DNA from: Geotalea uraniireducens Rf4
GTDB lineage: Bacteria > Desulfobacterota > Desulfuromonadia > Geobacterales > Geobacteraceae
NCBI RefSeq assembly: GCF_000016745.1
Contig: NC_009483.1
Coordinates: 1,200,001 to 1,232,000, forward strand
Direction: 5' to 3'
DNA length: 32,000 nt
Part shown: piece after piece, positions 16,005 through 30,592 of the stretch
Position numbering within the stretch: position 1 is the first letter of the stretch
Layout: the number at the start of each line of letters is the position of its first letter
Made by a program: the position numbers and the translations under genes
The notes under the pieces: model-generated
The model's database searches: none
Told to the model about the DNA's origin: nothing
Seen by the model: the letters and a program-made list of their open reading frames with translations, nothing else

Positions 16005-16199
16005 CCTGGACAACATGCTCCAGATACAAGTTGGCACAAATAGCATATTTTTGTGAAAAGGTATACCATTTTTCATGGATTTGTCAGGTTTTCCTTGTAA
16101 AAACAGAAACTTTGCAGCAGTTTTGAGGCAGCGGTTGATTTTCACCGCGAGGCTGTGTTACAAATCATTTTAATCTTCTATTCTTCCCCAAGGGGTATC

Positions 16200-18962
16200 A
16201 TGAAAAACGAAACAAAAAAATTCAAAGGACTGTTCGGTTTTGTCGCCGGATATCCGCGCGTCATCCTGGCGGCAGCCTTGCTGCTTTCCCTGCTGTCCGT
16301 AGTTTATACTGCAAAAAAGATGGAGTTTCTGACCGGCCGTGACGACCTGATGCCTAAAAATACAGGATTCCACCGGGACTACCGCTCCATGCGCCAGGAA
16401 TTCGGCGACATGGAGGATATTGTCGTCGTCATCGAAAGCGCCGATCAGGAACGGGCAGCCCGCTTCGGCACGCAACTCTATGAAAAACTGGCTCAGGACC
16501 GGCAACACTTCCGCGATGTTTTTTATCCGTTCGGGCTGGACTTCTTCAAAAAGAACGGCCTGCTCTTCATGCCGCTGGCAGATGTTCAGTCCTTGCGGCA
16601 AAACCTTACCCTGGCCAAGCCGGTGCTCAAGGAGCTGTCCGCTTCGCCGTCGGTACAGACCCTCTTTACCTATCTGACCAACCAGATGGACGGTTACGTT
16701 CAGCAAGGGGGTGGTGCGCCAGGGGCTGAAGCACGCCTTGCCGGACTCACCTTTATGCTGGACAAACTGGGGCTCGGTTTCAAAAAGTTCGGCGACAACA
16801 GCGCTGCTCCGGTTTCACTGGAAGAATTCTTTTTCCGGAACAAGGACGGCAAGGAATCGAGTTTCAGCAAAGCGGGTAAAATGCAGGTCCTGACCGTGTT
16901 GCCGGTAAAGGACCGCACGAGTTTTGTCCCGGCAGAAGAGGCGATCAAGGTGGTCCGGCTGGAGTTGGCTGCACTGCTGAAGCTGCCGGAATTCAAGGGG
17001 GTCACGGCAGGGCTTACCGGCAACCCGGTTCTTGAGAACGAGGAAATGACGACGAGCCAGCACGATATTGCCATTGCCACGGTTATCTCCCTGGTCCTGA
17101 CGGTGATTCTGCTCCTCCTCGCCTTCCGCGGCGTGCTCAACGTCATTGCCGCCATGGTGTCCCTGGTGGTGGCCATCTGCCTTTCCTTCGGTTTTGCCAC
17201 CCTCGCAATCGGCCATCTCAACATCCTCTCCATGGTCTTCGCCATCATGCTGATCGGCATCGGCATAGAGTACGGCATTCAGCTGGTGCTCCGTTACCAG
17301 GAAGAGCTGACCGGGGGCGCGGAGCAGTTGGATGCCATCGAAACCGGCCTGACGAAGAATGCCTGGGCAATTGTCATGGCGGCGGCCACCGTCGCCGCCG
17401 CTTTTCTGACCTTCGTCTTTACCGACTTCAAGGGGATCGCCGAACTCGGCATCATTGCCGGAGGCGGGGTAGTCATCTGCGTGCTCGTCACCTTCACCGT
17501 GTTGCCCGCCATGCTGGTCATTCTTGCGAAGTACCGCAAGAACAGGATCGAGGCGCGAGGAACGAGGAACGAGGAAAAACAAACCTCGAACCTCGAACCT
17601 CGAACCTCGAACCTCGCATCTCGCACCTCGAACCTCGCACCTCGCACCTCGAACCTTGCAGAGCGCGCGAAACGCGCTCTGTTCGGTTACCCCAAGATGG
17701 TTGTCGCGGTGACTGCCATCCTGTGCGCTGCCTCCCTCTACCCGCTTTACCAGGTCATTTTCGACTACAACCTCATGAACCTTCAGGCCAAGGGGTTGGA
17801 GTCGGTAACCTACGCCTACAAGTTGATGCGCAGCTCGGAAAATTCCGGCTATTTCGCCGTTGTTACCGCGTCCACGGCCGCTGAGGCCGCTGCCAAGAGC
17901 AAGGCGCTGGAGGCGCTTCCAACCGTTGACCATGTGGTGAGCCTCAATTCCTTCGTTCCTGACGACCAGCAGCAGAAGATCGCCGAACTGGCGGTGCTGC
18001 GCCGGGAACTGGCGGATGTCAGGCCGGCTAAGTATGAGGAAGACCTCAGCCTCATGGAGCTTCCCACCGTCTTTGAGAATTTCCGCAATGCCACCGAGCG
18101 CCTGAAAAATAAACTTGTCCAGGAACGGCGGCCCGAGGCAAAGCCGGTTGGGGCGTTCCTTGCCACCCTCGATGCGTTCTTCGCCAAACTGGAAAAGGAG
18201 AAGGACCGCAACGCGGTGGGAATGCTGAAGGATTTCCAGGGGGGAATGTTTGCGGAGCTGCCGGAAAAAATCGGGTTCCTCAAGGCTACCCTCAATCCTG
18301 AACCGACGACAGCCGCCCAGATCCCCCAGGAGCTCAAGTCCCGCTTTGTCGGAAAAACCGGCCGCTATATGCTTCAGGTTGCGCCGAAGCACGAAATCTT
18401 CGACCTCAAGCCCCTCAAGGCCTTTATCGACGACGTCCGCCGGGTCGACGCCCATGCCACCGGGGAGCCGGTGATGGTCTACGAGTCCATGACCATCATG
18501 CGCAATGCCTATGTAAAGGCCTTTATCTATGCCTTCATCGCCATCATCGTCATCCTCCTCGTCACCTTCAGAAGTATCAAGTATGCTGTCATCGGCCTGG
18601 TGCCGCTGGTCGTCGGCGTACTGTTCATGGTCAGCGGCATGTGGCTGTTCGGCATCAACTTCAATTCCGCCAACATCATTGTCATGCCGCTCGTGTTGGG
18701 GATTGCCGTTGATTCGGGGATTTACATCATCAACCGCTTCCGCCGTGAAGACGGGAGCGCGGCGGCGGTGGTGATGAGCAGCACCGGAGCGGGTGTGGTC
18801 CTCAATACCCTTACCATCATGGCCAGTTTCGGGGCACTGATGGTGGCTCACCATCAGGGGGTCTTCAGCATCGGCGCAGTCATGTCCCTGGGGATGGTTG
18901 CCTGTCAGATTGCCTTTATTGTCACGCTGCCGGCTGTACTGGCCCTCGTGGGGAAAAAGTAA
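16200..18962 (+). CDS. hpnN: RND/MMPL-family hopanoid transporter HpnN
   Basis: Two blocks of hydrophobic TM helices separated by large soluble domains. MMPL-like GIGIEYGIQLVLRYQEE and LGIAVDSGIYIINRF. Divergent from shc. ATG 16200 (MKNETKKF...) has AAGGGG upstream; the track start at 16155 is a GTG. Confidence 0.85.
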   Translation: MKNETKKFKGLFGFVAGYPRVILAAALLLSLLSVVYTAKKMEFLTGRDDLMPKNTGFHRDYRSMRQEFGDMEDIVVVIESADQERAARFGTQLYEKLAQDRQHFRDVFYPFGLDFFKKNGLLFMPLADVQSLRQNLTLAKPVLKELSASPSVQTLFTYLTNQMDGYVQQGGGAPGAEARLAGLTFMLDKLGLGFKKFGDNSAAPVSLEEFFFRNKDGKESSFSKAGKMQVLTVLPVKDRTSFVPAEEAIKVVRLELAALLKLPEFKGVTAGLTGNPVLENEEMTTSQHDIAIATVISLVLTVILLLLAFRGVLNVIAAMVSLVVAICLSFGFATLAIGHLNILSMVFAIMLIGIGIEYGIQLVLRYQEELTGGAEQLDAIETGLTKNAWAIVMAAATVAAAFLTFVFTDFKGIAELGIIAGGGVVICVLVTFTVLPAMLVILAKYRKNRIEARGTRNEEKQTSNLEPRTSNLASRTSNLAPRTSNLAERAKRALFGYPKMVVAVTAILCAASLYPLYQVIFDYNLMNLQAKGLESVTYAYKLMRSSENSGYFAVVTASTAAEAAAKSKALEALPTVDHVVSLNSFVPDDQQQKIAELAVLRRELADVRPAKYEEDLSLMELPTVFENFRNATERLKNKLVQERRPEAKPVGAFLATLDAFFAKLEKEKDRNAVGMLKDFQGGMFAELPEKIGFLKATLNPEPTTAAQIPQELKSRFVGKTGRYMLQVAPKHEIFDLKPLKAFIDDVRRVDAHATGEPVMVYESMTIMRNAYVKAFIYAFIAIIVILLVTFRSIKYAVIGLVPLVVGVLFMVSGMWLFGINFNSANIIVMPLVLGIAVDSGIYIINRFRREDGSAAAVVMSSTGAGVVLNTLTIMASFGALMVAHHQGVFSIGAVMSLGMVACQIAFIVTLPAVLALVGKK
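17582..17658 (+). repeat. Heptanucleotide tandem repeat (A/C)A(C/T)CT(C/T)G x 11 inside hpnN
   Basis: AACCTCG x5, CATCTCG, CACCTCG, AACCTCG, CACCTCG x2, AACCTTG, counted base by base. Encodes TSNLEPRTSNLASRTSNLAPRTSNLAE. Confidence 0.9.
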
Positions 18963-20730: not shown

Positions 20731-20894
20731 GTTCCTGTCAGGTTGAGACATTCGTACTCGAAGACTCAGATTGCGCGGCCGATTTTTAAATCTCCCTCCA
20801 GGTTCTTCTCGGCTGCATGTAGGCGCGACACATATGCTTATTGGGAATAGAAGATTTTCTTGTATTCAGATAAAAAATCTTGTACTGCTGGTCT

Positions 20895-22385
20895 ATGAAA
20901 AGAATTTTAGTTTCATGGATCGGGCGAAGCGACCTTCTCGCAGTCGAAGAATCGGACAGTATCGGACTTGGTCCTATCGCCCAGGCGGTCGATGGGACTG
21001 GCTATGACGATATCGTTCTCATTAGCGATTACCCTGAACAGGAAGTAACCTGTTACCTCGGATGGCTCGCAACAAGAACGCCAACCAAGATCACTCGCCA
21101 CGTTGCCCGTCTCACTAGCCCTACAAATTTTACCGAAATCTATGAAGCTGCCATTGCAGCTGTTTCCGAAACGCAGAAACGGTACAATAACGATACACTC
21201 ATCACTTATCACCTGAGCCCTGGCACCCCGGCCATGGCTGCGGTTTGGATACTGCTTGCCAAAACGCTATATCCGGCAACCCTGATTCAGTCCTCAAGGG
21301 AATATGGCGTACAGGTTGCCGATATTCCTTTCGATATTTCCGCGGAATTTATTCCCCGGATAGCACGCCAGATCGACGAACGGCTTGAGAAATTGCTTGC
21401 TGCCCTTCCGCCGGAAGCAACGGAGTTCGATAGTATCATCCACCGCAACCCGGTCATGCAGCGGTTGATTGCCAAGGCCAGGCTCGCAGCGATCAGGTCT
21501 GTACCGGTACTCATCGAGGGGGAATCCGGCACAGGGAAGGAGCTGTTGGCCCGCGCCATTCATCGGGCCGGTATACGTGCAGAAAAACCTTTCGTAGCAG
21601 TCAACTGCGGCGCCATACCGTCTGAGTTGGTGGAGTCCGAGTTCTTCGGTCACAAGAAGGGAGCCTTCACCGGTGCGGCATCCGACCGCAAGGGTTATTT
21701 CGAGTCGGCTAACAGTGGGACTCTTTTTCTGGATGAAATCGGCGAACTCCCGCTATCGGCCCAGGTCAAGATTCTGAGGGTGTTGCAGGAGGGCGAAGTG
21801 ACGCGGGTTGGTGATGCCAGGCCGATCAAGCTGGATGTGCGGATTGTCGCAGCTACCAACCGCTCCATGATGCAGGAGGTGGCGGCTGGCCGATTCCGCG
21901 CCGATCTCTTCTACCGTCTGGCTGTGGCCGTGCTGTTTATTCCGCCTCTTCGGGAACGGCAGGGGGATATCGGTCTGTTGATAGATCATTTCCTGGAGCA
22001 AGCGGTAATAGAAAACTGTGAAACCCGTAAGAAAATTTCTGCCAGCGCAAGAAATCTTCTGCTCTGCCACCCCTGGCCGGGCAACGTGCGGGAACTGCTA
22101 AATACTCTGCGCCGGGCCACGGTCTGGACAACGGGCGACACCATCCAAGCAGATGACATCCGCGAAGCCCTGTTTCCAGTAGCGTTGCAGCGAGCTGAGC
22201 ATATCCTGGGCCGGAGCATTGCCGAAGGCTTCAATATTCAGGGGGTAATAGCCGAGATTGCCCGGCATTACCTGCAACGGGGGATGGATGAAGGCGGGGG
22301 GAACAAGTCCAAAGCCGCTAAGATACTGGGCTTGCCGAACTATCAGACCTTGTCTAACTGGTTGAAGAAGTATGGTTTGGAATAA
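20895..22385 (+). CDS. Sigma-54-dependent transcriptional activator with RtcR-type CARF N-terminal domain
   Basis: The N-terminal ~180 aa parallel E. coli RtcR (SPTNFTEIYEA...YHLSPGTPAMAAVWILLAKTLYPATLIQSS). AAA+ core has GESGTGKE, GAFTGA, LFLDEIGEL. C-terminal Fis-type HTH is KSKAAKILGLPNYQTLSNWLKKYG. ATG 20895 is preferred over the TTG at 20880. Confidence 0.85.
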   Translation: MKRILVSWIGRSDLLAVEESDSIGLGPIAQAVDGTGYDDIVLISDYPEQEVTCYLGWLATRTPTKITRHVARLTSPTNFTEIYEAAIAAVSETQKRYNNDTLITYHLSPGTPAMAAVWILLAKTLYPATLIQSSREYGVQVADIPFDISAEFIPRIARQIDERLEKLLAALPPEATEFDSIIHRNPVMQRLIAKARLAAIRSVPVLIEGESGTGKELLARAIHRAGIRAEKPFVAVNCGAIPSELVESEFFGHKKGAFTGAASDRKGYFESANSGTLFLDEIGELPLSAQVKILRVLQEGEVTRVGDARPIKLDVRIVAATNRSMMQEVAAGRFRADLFYRLAVAVLFIPPLRERQGDIGLLIDHFLEQAVIENCETRKKISASARNLLLCHPWPGNVRELLNTLRRATVWTTGDTIQADDIREALFPVALQRAEHILGRSIAEGFNIQGVIAEIARHYLQRGMDEGGGNKSKAAKILGLPNYQTLSNWLKKYGLE

Positions 22386-22387
22386 TT

Positions 22388-22403
22388 TGGCATGTCCGCT
22401 GCA
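22388..22403 (+). promoter_or_regulatory. Sigma-54 (-24/-12) promoter TGGCATGTCCGCTGCA
   Basis: Matches TGGCACG-N4-TTGCA at 14 of 16 positions with correct GG-N10-GC spacing. Lies 3 nt after the activator stop and 24 nt before the hsdR ATG. GAGG RBS at 22417-22420. Confidence 0.65.
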
Positions 22404-22427
22404 ACCATGCTATAACGAGGAACAATT

Positions 22428-24689
22428 ATGAACGAAACCTACGCTCGCATATTGATTGATGACATGCTACGGCAGGTAGGCTGGGACCCCAGGGACAAGT
22501 CCGAGGTTGGGACTGAAGTTCCGGTATATCTTAGTGCCGGTCATGACCCCGCACCGGACTATGCCGGGAGAGATTCATTCGGAGAACCCAGCTACCATGT
22601 TGCTGGTCGTGCCGACTATGTCCTCTATGGACAGAATGGCCGACCACTGGCGGTCGTAGAAGCCAAGAAGAACGCTATTAATCCCTACGTGGCCAAGCAG
22701 CAGGCCCTTCCCTATGCCCAGCGTATAGATGCACCTTTTATCTTCCTTACAAATGGAGAGCTGATCTACTTCTGGGACTACCTTAACGATGATGCCCGCA
22801 TCGTTGACTCATTCTATTCTCGACGTGACATGGAGCGGCTGGTGGAAATGCGCCAGAGTCGCAAGACTTTGGCTACCATCGAATTGCAGGATTACTATGT
22901 TCGCCAAGGAGAAACCCGGCAGGTGCGCGATTACCAGCAGGAAGCCATGCGCGCCCTCGACCATGCTGTGGAATTAGGCAAGAAGCGTTTCCTGATCGAA
23001 CTCCCTACCGGTACCGGCAAGACCGATCTGATCGGTCTCTATCTCAAACGGTTGATGAAGGCCGGATGGGCTGAGAGAGTGCTGTTTCTCGTTGACCGCG
23101 AGCAGTTGGCCAAGCAGGCACTTGAGACTATCCAGGATATCCTCGGTGAATACAGCAGCTACTGGCTCAAACCGGGTACTGTTCGCCAGGAAAAGCAGAT
23201 TACGGTGGCACTGCTCCAAACCATGATCGGCTGTCATGAGGATTACAGTAGCGGTTATTTTGATGTAGTTGTAACCGATGAAAGCCACCGTTCCATTTAC
23301 GGAGCCTGGCAGACGGCACTTACCCGTTTCGATGCCCTGCACATTGGACTGACCGCCACCCCGGCGAACTACATAGAGCGCAACACTTTTGACTTCTACC
23401 AGTGCAAGGACAATCAGCCTGATTTTTCCTATCGTATCCAGGACGCCTTTGCGGGCGGCTATTTAGCCCCATATCGTTTTGCCACAGGCATTACCGAAAT
23501 TATTGCCGAAGGTGCTGACCTGAACGACGAACACTACGATCCGTCCCAGTTCGAGCGGACGTGGACCAACGAGAAAACCAACAAGCTGATGATGGAGGAG
23601 TTCGACCGTCTGGCCTGGGAGAACTACAAAGATCTGGCTCCCGGACAGAAGGATGGACCAGGCAAGTCGGTTGTCTTCGCCATTTCCAAGCACCATGCAG
23701 CCCGGCTGACTCACTACCTTAACCAGCTCCACCCTGAGCATAAGGGGCGTTACGCCGAAGTTATAACCTCGGACGTGGCCGATGCCGATGCCCTGATCAG
23801 GCGGTTCAAGAAAGAAATATATCCCATGGTGGCGGTTAGTGTCGGCATGCTCGACACCGGCTTTGATTGCCGGGAGCTCCTCCATGTAGTCATGTGCCGC
23901 CGGGTTCGCAGTCCGATTCTTTACCAGCAGATGCGCGGTCGCGGTACTCGAACTGCCCCGCATATCCAGAAGAAGAAATTTGTCATCTATGACTTCTTTA
24001 AAAACCACGAATACTTCAATGACAGTGATACTGACGTCTTCAGCGGAGCTGGTAGTGGCGGCCATGCGCCAGGCGGCACCACAACTGGCCCGCGTCCATC
24101 CGACAACCTGATCGAACTGGGTCTGGAGGATGAATGGCTGTATGCGGTCAAATATGTGGAAGTCGGCCCCAACGGCGAGCGGATCGATAAGAAAGAGTAC
24201 GTCACCAACTGGGAACAGACCATCAAGGGGCAGACTGACGACCCGATTCTGCAAAAAGTTCGTGAGGATGAACATCTCACAAATGAGGAAGAGGAGTTAT
24301 TGGCTAAACGCCTCAATACTCCGAAGCACTTCTTCAACGAAGAGAACCTGCGCCGTGCCTACCGCAATCCAGGCGGAACCCTGATTGACTTTATCCGGGC
24401 GGCTCTGGGGCTACTAAAACTGAAAAGCACCGACGAGCGTTTGGATGAAAATTTCCGTGCCTGGCTGGTGGCCCGTTCCCTTACTTCGGAGCAGGCCGAA
24501 TACCTGTCACTCCTCAAAAACCGAGGGATCGCCACCGGCAAACTGCAGTTGGAAGACCTCTTCTCTCCGCCTCTCTCCATCCTTAATGCCGCCGGAATCG
24601 GTGTGGAACTGTTCGGTGAAAAGGGGCTGAAAGAAGTTGTGGATGACATGAACGAAACCGTTTTCAAAGCAGCGAAAGGATATAAATAG
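22428..24689 (+). CDS. hsdR: Type I restriction enzyme R subunit (EcoEI-like short HsdR, 753 aa)
   Basis: N-terminal PD-(D/E)xK (GRADYVLY...AVVEAKK). Helicase motifs ELPTGTGKT, VVTDESHR, GLTATP, QQMRGRGTR. The C-terminal tail resembles the EcoEI R C-terminal domain. Confidence 0.9.
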   Translation: MNETYARILIDDMLRQVGWDPRDKSEVGTEVPVYLSAGHDPAPDYAGRDSFGEPSYHVAGRADYVLYGQNGRPLAVVEAKKNAINPYVAKQQALPYAQRIDAPFIFLTNGELIYFWDYLNDDARIVDSFYSRRDMERLVEMRQSRKTLATIELQDYYVRQGETRQVRDYQQEAMRALDHAVELGKKRFLIELPTGTGKTDLIGLYLKRLMKAGWAERVLFLVDREQLAKQALETIQDILGEYSSYWLKPGTVRQEKQITVALLQTMIGCHEDYSSGYFDVVVTDESHRSIYGAWQTALTRFDALHIGLTATPANYIERNTFDFYQCKDNQPDFSYRIQDAFAGGYLAPYRFATGITEIIAEGADLNDEHYDPSQFERTWTNEKTNKLMMEEFDRLAWENYKDLAPGQKDGPGKSVVFAISKHHAARLTHYLNQLHPEHKGRYAEVITSDVADADALIRRFKKEIYPMVAVSVGMLDTGFDCRELLHVVMCRRVRSPILYQQMRGRGTRTAPHIQKKKFVIYDFFKNHEYFNDSDTDVFSGAGSGGHAPGGTTTGPRPSDNLIELGLEDEWLYAVKYVEVGPNGERIDKKEYVTNWEQTIKGQTDDPILQKVREDEHLTNEEEELLAKRLNTPKHFFNEENLRRAYRNPGGTLIDFIRAALGLLKLKSTDERLDENFRAWLVARSLTSEQAEYLSLLKNRGIATGKLQLEDLFSPPLSILNAAGIGVELFGEKGLKEVVDDMNETVFKAAKGYK

Positions 24690-24691
24690 CA

Positions 24692-26341
24692 ATGAATGCT
24701 GATCTCCGCCGCAAACTCGACCACATTACCGACACCCTCTGGGCAGGAGGAGTCACCAACCCGGTAACCTACATTGAACAGATATCTTTTCTTATCTATC
24801 TGAAGTTATTGGATGAGGAAGAGACCAGCCGCGAACTGCGCGTCCGCCTCGGGGCCGGTAACAGCAGGTTTCTCTTTCCGGATCAGGCCGAGCGCTTCCG
24901 CTGGTCCAAGTGGCGCTTCAAGAGCGGAATTGAACTTAATGATTTCATCCGTGGGGAGGTCTTTCCCTACATGGCTTCGCTGGTTAAGGATGAGCCCCAG
25001 GTTGCCGAGTACTTCCGGGATGCCCGGTTAGAGATCAACGAAGTTGACGTTCTCAAACAGGTAGTGGATGAACTGGATTCCATCGAGTTCCGCAAGCTGG
25101 GACCGGATGTGAAGGGAGATATCTTCGAGTATCTCCTCACCCATCTGGGGCAGTCGGCTCTTAACGGCCAGTTCCGCACTCCCAAGCAAATCCGCTCCTT
25201 CATGGTTGCGATGGTCGATCCCGAATTCGGCGACACCATCGACGACCCGGCTTGCGGCACTGCCGGTTTCCTGATCGATGCCGTTGAATATCTGCTGGCC
25301 AAGTACAGCGAAAACCCACAAGAAATGCCGATCTACGGTGAAGAGTGGCTTGAGCGCAAGGGACTGACGCTGGACGAAGCCAAGAAGCAGATGCCCAATC
25401 TTCAGACCTATCGCAAAGGGCCGGGTGAGAAGATTCCTGACTGGGGGATACTGGAGGCGTCCATCTACGGCACCGACGTGTCGCGCCAGATGATGCGCAT
25501 CTCCATGATGAATCTGGTGCTGCACGGTATCGGTAAGGCGCGGCTCAAGCGGGCCAATGTCCTCTCCGAAATGGGCGGACTCACCGAAGATGATCTGAAC
25601 CGGAAATACAAGGTCAGTCTCTCCAATCCACCGTTTGCGGGGATGCTCCCCAAGGATTCGATCCGCCATGATCTTCCCACCAATTCCAAGAAGAGCGAAC
25701 TGCTCTTTCTCGGCCTGATGATGGAGTCACTGGCTCCCGGTGGCCGCTGTGCCGTGGTTGTACCGGAAGGGGCGTTGTTCGGTTCCACCGGAGCGCACGT
25801 AGAGTTGCGCAAGAAGCTGTTGCAGGATTTTGAGGTGCTGGCCGTGGTTTCACTCCCTGCCGGAGTGTTCAAGCCCTACGCCGGTGTCAAGACCTCGGTG
25901 CTAGTCTTCCGTCGTCCCGCCAATCCGCCGGAGCAAGGCAAACCGGCCACTGCCAAGGTCTGGTTTTACGAGATCAAGAACGACGGCTACGACCCGGACA
26001 AGATCACTGGAGGCGGCCGACCTGAGACTCCAGAGCAGAACGACATCCCAACCATGCTGGTTGCCTGGGAAGGGTACAAGGCGGGCAAGTTTAGCCAGCC
26101 GCCAGGTGTGGAAGCGGGAACAGTCCTGAAACCGGGCAGCCCTGACCCAAAATGCTGGTGGGCTGATTATGAGCGGATTGCCGACTCCGATGCCAACCTG
26201 GGAGCCTCACGTTACAAGCCGACAGTGGGTGAAGATCTCTCGGATGAAGACCCAGCGGAGCTTATTCATGATGTTCTGATGCTTGAGAAGAACCTTGTGG
26301 ATGGACTGGAAAAGCTGCTGCAAGAAGTGGGGTCTGTTTGA
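24692..26341 (+). CDS. hsdM: Type I R-M N6-adenine DNA methyltransferase subunit
   Basis: HsdM N-terminal region (LWAGGVTNPVTYIEQISFLIYLKLLDE). SAM motif DPACGTAGFL. Catalytic LSNPPFAG. Confidence 0.95.
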   Translation: MNADLRRKLDHITDTLWAGGVTNPVTYIEQISFLIYLKLLDEEETSRELRVRLGAGNSRFLFPDQAERFRWSKWRFKSGIELNDFIRGEVFPYMASLVKDEPQVAEYFRDARLEINEVDVLKQVVDELDSIEFRKLGPDVKGDIFEYLLTHLGQSALNGQFRTPKQIRSFMVAMVDPEFGDTIDDPACGTAGFLIDAVEYLLAKYSENPQEMPIYGEEWLERKGLTLDEAKKQMPNLQTYRKGPGEKIPDWGILEASIYGTDVSRQMMRISMMNLVLHGIGKARLKRANVLSEMGGLTEDDLNRKYKVSLSNPPFAGMLPKDSIRHDLPTNSKKSELLFLGLMMESLAPGGRCAVVVPEGALFGSTGAHVELRKKLLQDFEVLAVVSLPAGVFKPYAGVKTSVLVFRRPANPPEQGKPATAKVWFYEIKNDGYDPDKITGGGRPETPEQNDIPTMLVAWEGYKAGKFSQPPGVEAGTVLKPGSPDPKCWWADYERIADSDANLGASRYKPTVGEDLSDEDPAELIHDVLMLEKNLVDGLEKLLQEVGSV

Positions 26342-27603
26342 TGAAGTGGCCGATGGTTGAAATATCACGGTTTTGCCAGACTGGCAGCGGTGGAACACCG
26401 TCTCGTAATAACGCTGGCGACTACTATGGCGGGAATATTCCTTGGGTAAAATCTGGAGAGTTGAACCAAGAATTTGTTTTGAATACCGAAGAACGAATAA
26501 CCGAACTGGCCATAAAGGAAAGCAGCGCTAAAATTGTTCCGGCTGGCGCAATCCTCGTCGCGATGTATGGGGCGACAGTTGGGAAGTCAGCGCTTCTTGG
26601 CATAGATGCAGCAACCAATCAGGCAATCTGTAATATTATTCCAGACCCCGAAGCAGCAGATACCCGATATGTCTGGTATGCCCTTAAAAACCAGCTCCCA
26701 TATCTCTTGGCTCAGCGTGTTGGTGGTGCTCAACCGAATATAAGCCAACAAATAATCAAGAATACTCAAATCCCACTTCCTCTTCTCTCCGAGCAACGCC
26801 GTATCGTCGAAATCCTCGACCAAGCCGACCACCTCCGCAAGCTCCGCGGCGAAGCGGATAAAAAAGCCGAGCTCATCCTTCCGGCACTATTCAATAAGAT
26901 GTTTGGCGGTCCGGCGACGAATCCGATGGGGTGGCCGGAAATGCCACTTCGTCAAGTCATTGCAAAGGTTGAAGCTGGCTGGAGCGCCGTCAGCGAAGCC
27001 CGTGGATGCACGAAGGATGAATTCGGGGTTCTGAAGGTAAGTGCTGTAACCAGTGGACGGTTCCTGGCTTGTGAACATAAGGCGGTGCTTGTGCTTCAAA
27101 CTGACAGAGGCCTCTTAACACCTCGTCGTGGTGACCTACTTTTTAGCCGAGCAAACACTCGTGAACTGGTTGCTGCTTCATGCGTTGTTGAGGATGACCA
27201 CCCAAATCTGTTCCTTCCTGACAAGTTGTGGAGATTGATTCTTCATCCAGATCGTGCAACTGCGATGTATTTGAAAGAGTTGTTTTGGAACAACGGATTT
27301 CGAGACAGGTTTCGTGCTTCCGCTTCGGGTAGCAGCGGCTCCATGCTCAACATCAGCCAAGAGGCGATGTTGAATACAATTGCCCCAATTCCTCCGTTTA
27401 AGCTACAGGAAGAGTATTCAGCAAAGGCATGGAGTTTAGCTGCTATTGCGAAAGAACGTAGGCTGGCTGGGGATGCACTTGATACACTTTGGTCAAATCT
27501 TTTGCAACGCGCCTTCTCAGGCACCCTTACCGCCGCCTGGCGTGAGGCCCACATGAAGGAACTGCTGGCCGAGATGGAACAGCAGGCGAAATATCTCAAC
27601 TGA
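26338..27603 (+). CDS. hsdS: Type I R-M specificity subunit (two target-recognition domains)
   Basis: ATGA overlap with hsdM. GSGGTPSRNN...NIPWVKSGEL start of TRD1. Central conserved LPLLSEQRRIVEILDQAD helix and the C-terminal counterpart LLQRAFSG. Confidence 0.9.
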   Translation: MMKWPMVEISRFCQTGSGGTPSRNNAGDYYGGNIPWVKSGELNQEFVLNTEERITELAIKESSAKIVPAGAILVAMYGATVGKSALLGIDAATNQAICNIIPDPEAADTRYVWYALKNQLPYLLAQRVGGAQPNISQQIIKNTQIPLPLLSEQRRIVEILDQADHLRKLRGEADKKAELILPALFNKMFGGPATNPMGWPEMPLRQVIAKVEAGWSAVSEARGCTKDEFGVLKVSAVTSGRFLACEHKAVLVLQTDRGLLTPRRGDLLFSRANTRELVAASCVVEDDHPNLFLPDKLWRLILHPDRATAMYLKELFWNNGFRDRFRASASGSSGSMLNISQEAMLNTIAPIPPFKLQEEYSAKAWSLAAIAKERRLAGDALDTLWSNLLQRAFSGTLTAAWREAHMKELLAEMEQQAKYLN

Positions 27604-27620
27604 GACAGGAGGGCTATGAC

Positions 27621-27872
27621 ATGGCAGCTAAAGTAACCGGCCCAAAGGCCGCTAGTAGTGCATCCAAGACCCTCACCAGCAAAGCCACCGCCCCTAAATC
27701 CAAGACCGGCGCAGCCAGTACATTGAGTCAGACTGCTGCTCCGAAGAAGACCACCTCTGCCCCAGCAGCATCGGCAGCTTCCAAGGTGCTCACCGACGGA
27801 CGCACCAGCAAGACATCGAAAACTGCTGCCGCCAGTGCCCTGTCACAGCGGGAAAAAGCAAAGAAAAAATAG
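27621..27872 (+). CDS. Small basic Ala/Ser/Thr/Lys-rich protein with an internal 28-aa duplication (83 aa), function unknown
   Basis: AGGAGG RBS 8 nt upstream of the ATG. In-operon spacing is 17 nt after hsdS and 9 nt before the ATPase. Repeats AASSASKTLTSKATAPKSKTGAASTLSQ and AASAASKVLTDGRTSKTSKTAAASALSQ share 17 of 28 positions. Confidence 0.55.
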   Translation: MAAKVTGPKAASSASKTLTSKATAPKSKTGAASTLSQTAAPKKTTSAPAASAASKVLTDGRTSKTSKTAAASALSQREKAKKK

Positions 27873-27881
27873 GAACCCACC

Positions 27882-29579
27882 ATGCTCACAGCATTGCATC
27901 TCGGTAATTTCAAGGCATTTGCCGAAATCCAGAATATCCCGATCCGGCCCATTACCCTTATCTTTGGCCCTAATAGCGCTGGCAAGTCCAGCATCATCCA
28001 CAGCTTGGCTCTGGCCCATGAGGCCAGCCGGAAGGGTGATCTGGATATCTTCCGCACTGAGGTTGGTGGTAGTTCTATCGATCTGGGGGGCTTCCGGCAA
28101 TACATCCATCGCCGACAGGCCAATCGACGTATGGAGTGGGGGGCAACCTTTGACACTTCTTGTCTCTCTGGCAGACTGGGCGAATTGTTGAAGCCGGTCG
28201 GCACCATCTCTGCTCATATTACCATTGGCATGCCGCTGGACGACCAGGATAAGCCGCTTGCCGGGACATTGCCGGGAGTGATTTCCTACGAACTGGAAAG
28301 CAGGGGCGAGATGCTGGTCCGCATGAGCAAACGCCCGGATGGAAGTATGGCAGTTGATCGATTGAATCACGATCATCCGGTGATCAAGCAGGTCGTCATG
28401 GCGGTGCTGGAGAGCGGCACAACAACGCAAAATGTACAGGAAGCAGATTATAATGCCTTGACTGAAACAATTGCAGAAATTGTCTCTTCGCTTCGCACAA
28501 CGGGAAGTAAGTTTTTCCCTGAGGGGATCGTAGACAAAAGCAAACAAACGGAAGAAACCGATACGCCGATGCCGTTTTTCAGCGTCAGCAAAGGCAACCG
28601 TACCGAAGACTTATCCCGAGCGCTCAGATTTTTTCTTCCACGTTCGTTGAACGAATTGGTCACAGGTCTGTCCAAGACAGTACAAACTGAGTTCGCTCGT
28701 CTGTTGTATCTCGGACCTCTTCGTTCCTATCCTCCACGGCATTTGGCCTTTTCCGAGCATGATGACATCAACTGGTATGCAGGTGGCGGTTATACTTGGG
28801 ACGTAGTACGCCGTAATGACGCAGTCCGCGAGTCGGTAAACGAATGGCTGAGTTCCAGTAAACTGAAAACTCCATACAAGCTGATGGTGCGCTCATTGGT
28901 AGCTGCCGACCGATTGAAGGAACCTATCGAATCTGGGCTTGCTCAAATTGAGAATGACGAAGAGGCCATGTTCGTTGGGTCAATTGATAAAGATGGCTAT
29001 GTAATGAAACATTATCCTCCGAAGGATGATTCACGTTGTTTTTTCGAAGATATTGAGACCTCAGCCGAACTCATTGCGAAAATAGTAGAATCAGCTGAAA
29101 TCGACCGCATCCGTGATCTAGTATTGGTAGACCAGCGATCTAATACTGTTGTCACCCACCGCGATGTCGGCATTGGAATCTCGCAGGTTCTGCCTGTGCT
29201 TGTCATGGCCTATGGATCACAACACAAACTGGTCGCGATGGAACAACCGGAAATTCACCTACATCCAGCGCTTCAGGCAGAGTTGGGAGATGTTTTTATT
29301 AAATCGGCGTTAGGGGAACAGAAAAACACGTTCATACTTGAAACTCATAGCGAGCATCTAATTCTGAGATTTATGAGGCGATTGCGCGAAACTTACCAAA
29401 AAAAGGATAATGGCTTGCCTCCAATAACTCCAATGGATATCTCAGTACTTTATGTTGAACCGGATGGGCCTCACAGCATAGTACGAGAAATGCCCCTCAA
29501 TGAACTTGGGGAACTTGTGAAAGCTTGGCCGGGAGGCTTCTTCGAAGAAGGTCTCAGGGAGCAGTTCGGCGATGCTTGA
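27882..29579 (+). CDS. ABC-type (AAA_15/AAA_21-style) ATPase with DUF3696-like C-terminus (565 aa)
   Basis: Walker A GPNSAGKSS. Signature-like GIGISQVLPVL. Walker B-like LVAMEQPEIHLHP. ETHSEHL. C-terminal WPGGFFEEGL. Confidence 0.85.
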   Translation: MLTALHLGNFKAFAEIQNIPIRPITLIFGPNSAGKSSIIHSLALAHEASRKGDLDIFRTEVGGSSIDLGGFRQYIHRRQANRRMEWGATFDTSCLSGRLGELLKPVGTISAHITIGMPLDDQDKPLAGTLPGVISYELESRGEMLVRMSKRPDGSMAVDRLNHDHPVIKQVVMAVLESGTTTQNVQEADYNALTETIAEIVSSLRTTGSKFFPEGIVDKSKQTEETDTPMPFFSVSKGNRTEDLSRALRFFLPRSLNELVTGLSKTVQTEFARLLYLGPLRSYPPRHLAFSEHDDINWYAGGGYTWDVVRRNDAVRESVNEWLSSSKLKTPYKLMVRSLVAADRLKEPIESGLAQIENDEEAMFVGSIDKDGYVMKHYPPKDDSRCFFEDIETSAELIAKIVESAEIDRIRDLVLVDQRSNTVVTHRDVGIGISQVLPVLVMAYGSQHKLVAMEQPEIHLHPALQAELGDVFIKSALGEQKNTFILETHSEHLILRFMRRLRETYQKKDNGLPPITPMDISVLYVEPDGPHSIVREMPLNELGELVKAWPGGFFEEGLREQFGDA

Positions 29580-30501
29580 CGAATATGCTCTGGTACCCGA
29601 CATTTTTGACCCTGCGGCTTATACCAATAACGTGCTTGCAGATGCATATTTACCGTTTCTGAAAGAGCCTTTGTTCAATGAGGCCATTGTTCGTGATATT
29701 CATAACGGAGCGTGGAGTCAGTATTGTCTCTCAAATGCTGCGAACCTTCATCGACTTACTAAAGAGATAATACGCAAACTCATCCAAAATAATCGATTAA
29801 GTCGCTTTCCGGCTCAGTCTTCAGACATACCAGCGCATGCACAAGACTGGTGCAATGAGAGCCTGCGAAGTCATACTGTCACTCCCCTTACTGGCATCAT
29901 TGCCTCCCATTCAACTAAACAGACCTTTGCTCAAGCTGAAGTTGCATCAATAGAAATGCTGACAGGCACGAATTGGTGGCAGCGCAGGAGCCCGTCTGTC
30001 ACGGTTGATCGCAAAACAAACACTTATCTTGCTGTCCTGGATAGGGTGTTCCATCAGGCGAACTCTTTAATGTTTATCGATCCGAATCTTGATCCAAGTT
30101 CTCGCAATTACCGGGAGTTTTCTCGACTGCTCACACCTTTGAGCCAACGGCAGTTGCGTCCGAGGATCGAAATTCACCGGAGTCTTTGCCAGGGAGATGG
30201 GCGTGCTCGCACGTTCCCGACAGAAGCAGACTGGAAAGTGAGTTTTGCTGGATTGGGGGCGGATCTACATGCCTGCGGCCTGACAGCCGAGGTTTTTCTT
30301 TGGGATGATTTTCACGAGCGCTACCTGATTACCGATATCGTCGGGGTCAGCGTGCCTGCTGGCTTCGACGTAACCGGCAAGAAGGATGATTGGTCTACCT
30401 GGGGGCGACTCGGGCGTGAAGACAAGGACAAGATTCAACGTCTTTTTGATCCCGCAGCGAGACCTGAGAGTCTGAAGTGGCACTTTCAGATCGGGGCATG
30501 A
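29572..30501 (+). CDS. Unknown 309-aa protein translationally coupled to the ATPase; possible degenerate PLD/MIT_C-like fold at the C-terminus
   Basis: ATGCTTGA overlap (8 nt) with the ATPase gene. FIDPNLD ... FHERYLITDIVGVSVPAGFD (H-x-R-x4-D ... GFD, nt 30313-30369). I recognise no other motif. Confidence 0.6.
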   Translation: MLDEYALVPDIFDPAAYTNNVLADAYLPFLKEPLFNEAIVRDIHNGAWSQYCLSNAANLHRLTKEIIRKLIQNNRLSRFPAQSSDIPAHAQDWCNESLRSHTVTPLTGIIASHSTKQTFAQAEVASIEMLTGTNWWQRRSPSVTVDRKTNTYLAVLDRVFHQANSLMFIDPNLDPSSRNYREFSRLLTPLSQRQLRPRIEIHRSLCQGDGRARTFPTEADWKVSFAGLGADLHACGLTAEVFLWDDFHERYLITDIVGVSVPAGFDVTGKKDDWSTWGRLGREDKDKIQRLFDPAARPESLKWHFQIGA

Positions 30502-30592
30502 TGCTGCACATATTTTAGAGTCGTCTTCCTAGTTTATAGAGATGGTGTTAAGTGCTGATACGAAATGTTTGACGGAGGCAAATACATTCGCA

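Follow-up and report, generated by a model that had tools for sequence, protein, structure and literature searches.

An ATP-binding cassette (ABC) ATPase and a 309-aa partner protein of Geotalea uraniireducens Rf4 form an obligate, co-inherited gene pair that recurs in at least seven phyla, and here they make up the distal part of a conserved operon headed by a CARF-domain activator and a predicted sigma-54 promoter. The pair (ATPase, 27882..29579; partner, 29572–30501; both on the + strand) was studied within a window of 32,000 nt (contig NC_009483.1, positions 1,200,001 to 1,232,000 of the forward strand), the whole stretch of DNA analyzed here and the frame for all coordinates of this genome. 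An earlier note, made from the letters of this DNA alone, had described the two genes as a translationally coupled, possibly undescribed defense pair appended to the hsd genes of a type I restriction-modification (R-M) system. Both open reading frames (ORFs) were found as described, with an overlap of 8 nt and directly after hsdR-hsdM-hsdS apart from one small ORF. The word "appended," however, has to give way: the pair belongs to an operon whose order and control are conserved. We think it probable that the two proteins constitute an ATPase-gated phosphodiesterase module of the HEC-03/Menshen-NsnBC kind, encoded by the last two cistrons of a sigma-54 defense operon. Of most interest is the conserved CARF/sigma-54 control, which unites a type I R-M system with a module of ATPase and phospholipase D (PLD)-fold protein.

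How tightly are the two genes linked in other genomes? Our sample comprised 35 genome loci, from species of at least seven phyla, plus loci from two look-ups. The partner gene lies directly downstream of the ATPase gene in 30 of the 32 loci with enough sequence, and the two exceptions are decayed loci; the co-occurrence beyond this genome that the earlier note had called for is thus well established. The partner family is present in Desulfuromonadota, Proteobacteria, Cyanobacteria, Verrucomicrobiota, Acidobacteriota, Planctomycetota, and KSB1. In Geotalea the ATPase gene ends in ...GGC GAT GCT TGA with the partner's ATG inside it (gATGCTTGA), which gives the 8-nt overlap; the same spacing of −8 nt occurs at 18 loci, and the widest junction measures 11 nt. 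Pairwise identity matrices of the two proteins are correlated (r = 0.78), a value that none of 2000 Mantel permutations reached. Chance alone would not produce such a pairing, and adjacency, tight junction, and correlated divergence together identify the pair as an obligate, co-inherited unit. A search of an E. coli genome collection gave no match, and hence no tractable E. coli homologue.

The ATPase (565 aa) matches the Pfam families AAA_15 (3e-19) and AAA_21 (2.5e-17). Its best PADLOC models are HEC-03B (4.3e-43), PDC-M55A (1.2e-41), and NsnB (6.6e-39), with AriA (1.2e-20) and GajA far behind; the same three models rank highest again for distant members of the family. The HEC-03B model (PDLC04148) aligns with 146 bits in two stretches, the better one covering residues 401–560. 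Because HEC-03B and PDC-M55A slightly outscore NsnB, we place the protein, on sequence, only in the joint clade of DUF3696-tailed ATPases that HEC-03, PDC-M55, and Menshen NsnB appear to share. The motifs singled out in the earlier note—GPNSAGKSS, LVAMEQPEIHLHP, ETHSEHL, and WPGGFFEE—all stand where it had put them and are near-invariant among 33 family members. In the alignment of these 33 sequences, the GxNxxGKS core of the Walker A motif (G29–S36) is invariant, the GxGxSQ signature-like motif (residues 430–435) and the H-loop histidine H489 (ETHSE) are conserved, and the C-terminal tail GELVKAWPGGFFEE (residues 543–556) is almost invariant. The association of the WPGGFFEE tail with DUF3696 also held, through a sub-threshold Pfam match (18.7 bits versus a cutoff of 22) and through the DUF3696 calls that homologues bear. 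The Walker B motif reads E454-Q455-P-E457 (nt 29241–29252). Most family members have this E-Q-P-E form, in which glutamine replaces the usual catalytic glutamate; E-E-P-E was found at three loci only, all of them hsd-less. Glutamine at the catalytic position suggests slow or regulated ATP hydrolysis.

The partner (29572–30501, +) has a 100% identical entry at NCBI, a "hypothetical protein," and belongs to a family of 225 clusters at 90% identity, each of ~310 aa and none named. A profile search recovered 1042 representatives (50% clustering, E ≤ 1e-3), nearly all full-length, and essentially one architecture runs throughout these ~1000 cluster representatives. No model of Pfam, PADLOC (down to E ≤ 10), NCBIfam, or PHROGs matched the partner, so current defense annotation overlooks the family. 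A sequence profile search of the PDB returned a single spurious match (0.34). Toprim, HNH, and anticodon-nuclease models were among those that failed to match (PADLOC to E ≤ 10), in agreement with the earlier reading that no such motif is visible in the protein.

What does the partner look like in three dimensions? An AlphaFold2 model built from a 42-sequence alignment (mean predicted local distance difference test score, pLDDT, of 93.9; predicted template modeling score of 0.88) has two domains. The N-terminal domain (aa 1–138; 29572..29985, +) is a beta-alpha-beta Rossmannoid of weakly PIN-like appearance, with a pLDDT of 89–94 (89 when residues 1–138 were modeled alone). Its best Foldseek matches are PIN domains, none of them significant: Regnase (5h9v) comes first at E = 0.05, and PAE2754 (1v8o) and VapC (7vwo, 3zvk, 6a7v) are also among them, with template modeling (TM) scores of 0.41–0.55. 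The entry 1v8o is the one cited for the N-domain of NsnC in the Menshen paper (Nucleic Acids Res 2025, PMC12065111). Residues E4, D10, R41, E65, K69, R75, and E96 are conserved family-wide, and mean column identity over the domain is 72%. The model is consistent with a PIN-like adaptor that would serve as a putative docking site for the ATPase tail.

The C-terminal domain (aa ~139–309; 29986..30501, +) is, according to the predicted structure, a PLD fold of the MIT_C-like H-x-R ("HDR") kind. Foldseek comparison with the PDB retrieved the PLD superfamily at probability 1.00 and E-values of 1e-4 to 1e-3, including Nuc (1byr, target-normalized TM 0.60), NucT (6ehi, 0.59), and MITD1 (2ymb_A, 0.62; 4a5z, 0.57–0.58); further matches were the nuclease domain of SauUSI (7clg), PLD3/4, Streptomyces PLD, the C-domain of TrmBL2, and FAM83. 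Normalization to single-domain targets gives TM scores of 0.56–0.62, and PLD proteins are also the top matches in BFVD. Neither Pfam PLDc nor Pfam MIT_C matches the sequence. Three motifs define the domain, D170-P-x2-D174, E200-x-H202, and H248-[D/E]-R250-x4-[D/N]-x8-G264-x-D266, the last of which reads H248-E-R250-Y-L-I-T-D255 ... A-G264-F-D266 in Geotalea (nt 30313–30369). Across 32 homologues (25–100% identity) the conserved residues are D170, P171, D174, E200, H202, H248, R250, G258, G264, and D266; H248, R250, G264, and D266 are at least 93% conserved down to 25% identity, and position 255 alternates between D and N. The earlier note had located this stretch exactly and had likened it to a Lys-to-Arg variant of the HKD signature or to MIT_C-like PLD folds, which the Foldseek result and the family-wide HDR/HER conservation bear out. 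The canonical H-x-K-x4-D-x6-G-[ST]-x-N motif is absent, its place taken by H248-x-R250-x4-[D/N]255-x8-G264-x-D266. Nuc, NucT, the SauUSI N-domain, and the MIT_C domain of MITD1 share with the partner both the fold and the layout H-x-[K/R]-x4-D...G-x-[N/D]; compared with the single-domain PLD nucleases, the partner has Arg for Lys, Asp for Asn, and a hairpin two residues longer. As modeled, the partner is a PLD-fold protein, though not a canonical HKD enzyme. We also sought relatives with other N-termini, as in the domain shuffling of NsnC, and the few candidates (P0230, P0245, and P0201) look like fragments or frameshift products.

What controls the pair? At the head of the operon stands a sigma-54 enhancer-binding protein (20895..22385, +; annotated ATG at 20895, TTG at 20880 according to the ORF finder) that combines RtcR-like CARF, sigma-54-interaction AAA+, and Fis-type helix-turn-helix (HTH) domains. 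It matches the PADLOC model RtcR_PspF2--CARF_AAA_HTH over its full length (1.5e-201), which includes an N-terminal divergent CARF domain; Pfam adds Sigma54_activat (2.5e-69), AAA_lid_14, and HTH_8, and GAFTGA is present in the translation. We do not regard it as RtcR proper, because its NCBIfam RtcR match (8e-99) lies below the equivalog cutoff. A predicted sigma-54 (−24/−12) promoter, TGGCATGTCCGCTGCA (22388..22403, +), with the spacing GG-N10-GC, begins 3 nt past the activator stop, and 25 nt separate its end from the hsdR ATG. Sigma-54 matches in the window alone are not significant (9 versus 16.7 expected). It is the comparative analysis, not the single-window match, that makes the promoter convincing: TGGCAC-N5-yTGC occurs within 150 nt past the activator stop (within 5–30 nt in most) at 16 of 20 distinct loci, or at 18 of 20 when the TGGCGC variant is counted, against a background rate of 1.3% of 150-nt windows. 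Loci without the activator are also without the element, including all four cyanobacterial loci; cyanobacteria, to our knowledge, lack RpoN.

Downstream of the promoter lie hsdR, the type I restriction subunit with an EcoEI_R_C-type C terminus (22428..24689, +; Pfam ResIII, EcoEI_R_C, and HSDR_N; PADLOC REase_I, 7.5e-87), hsdM, the methyltransferase (24692..26341, +; Pfam N6_Mtase and HsdM_N; MTase_I, 1.5e-129), and hsdS, the specificity subunit (26338..27603, +; Pfam Methylase_S; Specificity_I, 7.8e-90). Between hsdS and the ATPase gene is a basic, Ala/Lys/Ser/Thr-rich protein of 83 aa with an internal two-fold repeat (27621..27872, +), preceded by a strong AGGAGG ribosome-binding site. It matches phrog_5079 (1.6e-21) and no model of Pfam, PADLOC, or NCBIfam; a counterpart at this position is present only in Desulfuromusa (L030, 8061–8294, 72% identity), and the protein is an optional insert outside the conserved core. 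Intercistronic distances from hsdR to the partner are 2, −4, 17, 9, and −8 nt. We saw no convincing terminator between hsdR and the partner, and a scan for sigma-70 promoters and terminators gave no more than the shuffled expectation. Given this tight spacing and the lack of a convincing terminator, the pair is the distal part of the sigma-54 operon. hsdR is the promoter-proximal gene, and no separate promoter is evident for hsdM and hsdS; a tight sigma-54 promoter would leave the chromosome without an evident source of methylation before induction. Induction in an under-methylated cell could even be suicidal, since hsdM and hsdS appear to share that promoter.

A link between such activators and restriction is already on record. 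Makarova et al. (2014, PMC4012209) stated that RtcR-like proteins with CARF, NtrC, and HTH domains "are often associated with R-M systems," for which they considered sigma-54-dependent activation probable. Supplementary File 4 of that study has this very locus, with the PspF-like gene as gi 148263097. Its table lacks the ATPase and its partner because the ±4-gene window ended at the 83-aa ORF, and both the promoter and the pair are undescribed there. Our literature search found no paper on an NsnA-less, sigma-54-controlled, hsd-linked ATPase–PLD pair and no experimental follow-up of the association between CARF-domain bacterial enhancer-binding proteins and R-M systems.

How constant is the operon? 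The six-gene order activator, hsdR, hsdM, hsdS, ATPase, partner recurs in Burkholderia cenocepacia, Thioalkalivibrio, and many others, and HsdR of the window is 68–72% identical to HsdR in cassettes of other phyla. Between Geotalea and Nostocales (L024, L025, and L028), HsdR and HsdM are 68–72% identical while the ATPase and partner reach only 40–48%, so the R-M genes are much more conserved than the pair in the same cassettes. A second group of loci (L030, L035, L036, and L038) joins the pair to a longer, different HsdR family with ~32% identity. Upstream sequence of at least 8 kb was available at 29 loci, where hsdRM precedes the pair in 21 and the activator in 16; both are present in 12, hsdRM only in 9, the activator only in 4, and neither in the remaining 4. 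The hsd genes are therefore not obligatory for the pair, being missing from 8 of the 29.

In the activator-only variant, the order is activator, promoter, ATPase, partner, and then a conserved gene encoding a protein of ~235 aa (L017, 10987–11697; L021, 10945–11643; L023, 10796–11539; L018, ~1184–1867). Copies of this protein share 70–85% identity, and neither Pfam nor PADLOC has a match for them. A defense context of the pair is apparent from a Septu neighbor, from inserted genes for YhcG and KAP NTPase, and from a type III-B CRISPR/Csx1 locus. The Septu unit (PtuA/PtuB) comes next after the ~235-aa gene in L021. Defense-type genes inside the cassette lie at L012 7265–8257, L019 7148–8242, L022 7100–8242, and L030 6649–8001, and at L004 3553–5349 and L007 2274–4103; in some cassettes a DUF1016/YhcG PD-(D/E)xK nuclease or a KAP NTPase is inserted between hsdS and the ATPase gene, and in some hsdR and hsdM are separated by the gene for a second AAA_15/AAA_21 ATPase of ~600 aa. 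In Symploca sp. SIO1C2 (L029, 425–12403), which has neither hsd genes nor the sigma-54 activator at this locus, the pair lies within a type III-B CRISPR-Cas locus, with Cmr2/Cas10, Cmr3, and RAMP genes directly upstream and the CARF-HEPN protein Csx1 (PADLOC, 7.6e-128) directly downstream. The position of the pair between cmr genes and csx1 in this cyanobacterium hints at a link to cyclic-oligoadenylate-type signaling.

Is the pair a known system? PARIS, Septu, Gabija, OLD, PrrC, and RloC were rejected, as no Toprim, HNH, or anticodon-nuclease domain is present; for all of these except OLD, the earlier note had reached the same view. PARIS (AriA/AriB) and PrrC-EcoprrI resemble the pair in having an ABC ATPase and in their linkage to type I R-M systems; restraint of a nuclease by the ATPase and a back-up logic would be further points in common. 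They differ in that the pair here is without Toprim/DUF4435 and without an anticodon-nuclease domain, and the similarity to AriA reaches only 1e-20. The DUF4435/Toprim partner AriB has no counterpart here, the partner being a predicted PLD fold with no Pfam or PADLOC match. Neither PrrC nor RloC is represented among the best 25 of 97 PADLOC matches of the ATPase, which ends in a DUF3696 tail.

The resemblance to Menshen goes further. Like NsnB, for which a non-canonical Walker B dyad has been reported (PMC12065111), the ATPase has a DUF3696 helical tail and such a dyad; like NsnC, with its PIN-like N-domain, the partner joins an N-domain, here of weak and non-significant PIN likeness, to a nuclease-type C-domain; and both systems are frequently associated with type I R-M genes. 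In published AlphaFold3 (AF3) models, NsnB forms a dimer whose DUF3696 tails are predicted to grip NsnC by its PIN-like N-domain, and PB-PLD1, one of the NsnC effector classes, is described as an MIT_C-like PLD that has an HDR motif and, after β2, a conserved D/E (PMC12065111). By that published description, the likeness of PB-PLD1 to the partner's C-domain is one of fold and motif (HDR, D/E) only. Menshen differs, however, in its sensor NsnA (ParB-DUF262 + ParBDB), which we found neither in the operon of the window nor in ~30 related loci; a Pfam scan of all cassette proteins gave no DUF262, and the ~30 loci hold activator, hsdRMS, ATPase, and partner, plus only YhcG, KAP NTPase, or unknown inserts. 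The N- and C-domains of NsnC are hypervariable, whereas the partner has a conserved N-domain and a fixed effector type. Unlike Menshen, the pair stands under a CARF/sigma-54 regulator in about half of its loci. Full membership in Menshen was rejected on the absence of NsnA and on a partner that is conserved, not polymorphic.

HEC-03 (Hma-embedded candidate 3) supplies the top-scoring ATPase model and likewise consists of two genes, for an ABC ATPase and a PIN-fold partner, embedded in an R-M-like system; found inside Hma, it has been shown by experiment to act against phages, a function that depends on both genes, and its induction is toxic (bioRxiv 10.1101/2024.01.29.577857). Its effector, however, is a VapC-like PIN protein without PLD, the hidden Markov model (HMM) of that effector misses the partner, and the ATPase match covers mainly the C-terminal third. 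PDC-M55, a PADLOC candidate whose PDC-M55A is the top match for distant family members, has no second component that matches the partner. Membership in HEC-03 or PDC-M55 fails on the effector side, with ATPase clade and general architecture shared. The RtcR-rtcBA regulon and PspF-like regulators have the same CARF + NtrC-AAA+ + HTH activator with predicted sigma-54 control of downstream genes; RtcR-rtcBA regulates an RNA ligase and a cyclase, whereas the activator here precedes hsdRMS and the ATPase–PLD pair. Of the earlier suggestion of an undescribed pair, one half stands, in that no HMM library recognizes the partner; the other half does not, as the ATPase hits named systems and the NsnC/NsnB architecture has been published. 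The pair, probably of the HEC-03/Menshen-NsnBC kind, is not a wholly new system.

How might such an operon work? In the ATPase-gated mechanism that we favor, the CARF domain of the RtcR-like activator would sense a ligand derived from infection or damage, and the activator would then fire the −24/−12 promoter just past its own stop; element and activator are observed together across the loci. One transcript, tightly packed as we see it, would carry HsdR, HsdM, HsdS, the optional 83-aa protein, the ATPase, and the partner. By analogy with the AF3 models of NsnB–NsnC, an oligomeric ATPase may clamp the PIN-like N-domain of the partner through its WPGGFFEE tail and so restrain the effector, a contact on which the strict adjacency, translational coupling, and correlated divergence of the two genes bear. 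Once the ATPase sensed a trigger, the PLD-fold domain (H202, H248, R250, E200, and D266) would cleave phosphodiester bonds of nucleic acids and either degrade the invader or abort the infection, with the type I R-M enzyme as a usual yet dispensable first layer. A number of observations weigh against this mechanism. The ATPase–partner family is known from sequence and models alone, NsnA is missing, and the effector models of NsnC, HEC-03, and PDC-M55 all miss the partner, even at E ≤ 10. The PIN similarity of the N-domain is not significant (E ≥ 0.05), and its strong conservation (72% column identity) is unlike that of the hypervariable inPINs of Menshen. Among the nearest structural relatives of the C-domain are several PLD-like domains without catalytic function (MITD1 MIT_C, the TrmBL2 C-domain, and FAM83), and arginine replaces the canonical HKD lysine. 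Turnover of ATP may be poor, since the Walker B glutamate position is mostly glutamine. Enhancer sites for the activator, sought as inverted repeats around the promoter and upstream of the activator gene, gave nothing convincing, and the pair was absent from the plasmid and phage collections searched.

Three other explanations deserve weight. We hold it possible, though on balance doubtful, that the pair is a back-up of the PrrC/PARIS type, in which the ATPase monitors the Hsd complex or an anti-restriction protein (Ocr, ArdA, or Stp) and the PLD nuclease is freed only when type I restriction is disabled. The related ABC ATPases AriA, and PrrC within EcoprrI, are set off by anti-restriction proteins (bioRxiv 10.1101/2024.01.29.577857), and AriA models do match the ATPase (1e-20). 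Type I R-M genes are linked to the pair in 21 of 29 loci, and the linkage extends to two clearly different HsdR families (~70% and ~32% identity to HsdR of the window). Such a back-up is compatible with co-expression, with restraint by the ATPase, and with activation of the PLD domain, yet the data do not require it; the 8 of 29 loci without hsd genes speak against it, four of them keeping activator, ATPase, and partner with a different gene, that for the 235-aa protein, and one lying in the type III-B CRISPR locus. An unlikely reading makes the PLD-like domain a non-catalytic binder of ligand, membrane, or nucleic acid and gives the pair a sensing or co-regulatory role, with feedback on the activator through its CARF domain, in the way that RtcA/RtcB bind RtcR. 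MITD1, TrmBL2, and FAM83 among the top Foldseek matches, the change of the HKD lysine to arginine, and the fact that activator, ATPase, and partner form the smallest conserved activator-containing unit all fit such a role, and RtcAB are reported to bind the CARF domain of RtcR and to be needed for activation (PMC9650030). Yet two invariant histidines, invariant acidic residues, and an arginine, retained over 25–100% identity, are what one expects of a catalytic site, the partners of related ATPases are bona fide nucleases, and 13 of 29 loci have the pair without the activator.

We give still less credence to the idea that the pair is an accessory of the type I enzyme, such as an extra DNA-degrading or end-processing module recruited by HsdR, for all that it shares a single operon with hsdRMS at minimal intercistronic gaps and that the whole cassette is inherited together across phyla. 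The pair also occurs without hsd genes, HsdR keeps its own HSDR_N nuclease domain, and the stretch between hsdS and the ATPase gene freely accepts other genes (those for the YhcG nuclease, the KAP NTPase, and the 83-aa protein), as is typical of separate embedded systems. Returning to the ATPase-gated module, we offer as speculation an extension in which the operon would be a signal-induced, two-layer immune system: the CARF activator might detect a nucleotide or RNA-end signal derived from infection and switch on both the type I R-M system and the ATPase-gated PLD nuclease, and CARF may in turn receive feedback from the pair or from products of its cleavage, much as RtcR does from RtcAB.

These results define a large and phylogenetically broad effector family, with ~1000 representatives at 50% clustering. 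They suggest that a module of NsnB/HEC-03-type ATPase and PIN-like/PLD effector can occur without NsnA, in which case the transducer–effector core would be separable from the sensor. They also give a concrete, conserved promoter to a twelve-year-old prediction, namely that CARF–sigma-54 regulators control restriction systems. That promoter makes two questions directly testable: which signals non-CRISPR CARF domains sense, and whether infection can induce R-M systems and abortive effectors.

The cassette (20751–30541) interrupts a run of hopanoid-type housekeeping genes, being flanked by squalene cyclase, RND exporter, methyltransferase, and ChaN-like genes at one end and by the gene for a family-21 glycosyltransferase at the other. 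The G+C content of the cassette is 0.46–0.57, lowest over the pair, against 0.56–0.60 in the flanks. No tRNA, integrase, or flanking repeat was seen around the cassette, and scans of the window for Rfam families and tRNAs gave no match. Outside the cassette, a heptanucleotide tandem repeat (AACCTCG × 10.7, 17582–17656) lies inside the RND/HpnN-like exporter ORF (16155–18962), where it encodes PRTSNLASRTSNLAPRTSNLA. As the period is not a multiple of 3, adding or losing a single unit would change the reading frame, and the repeat could be a contingency, or phase-variation, tract.

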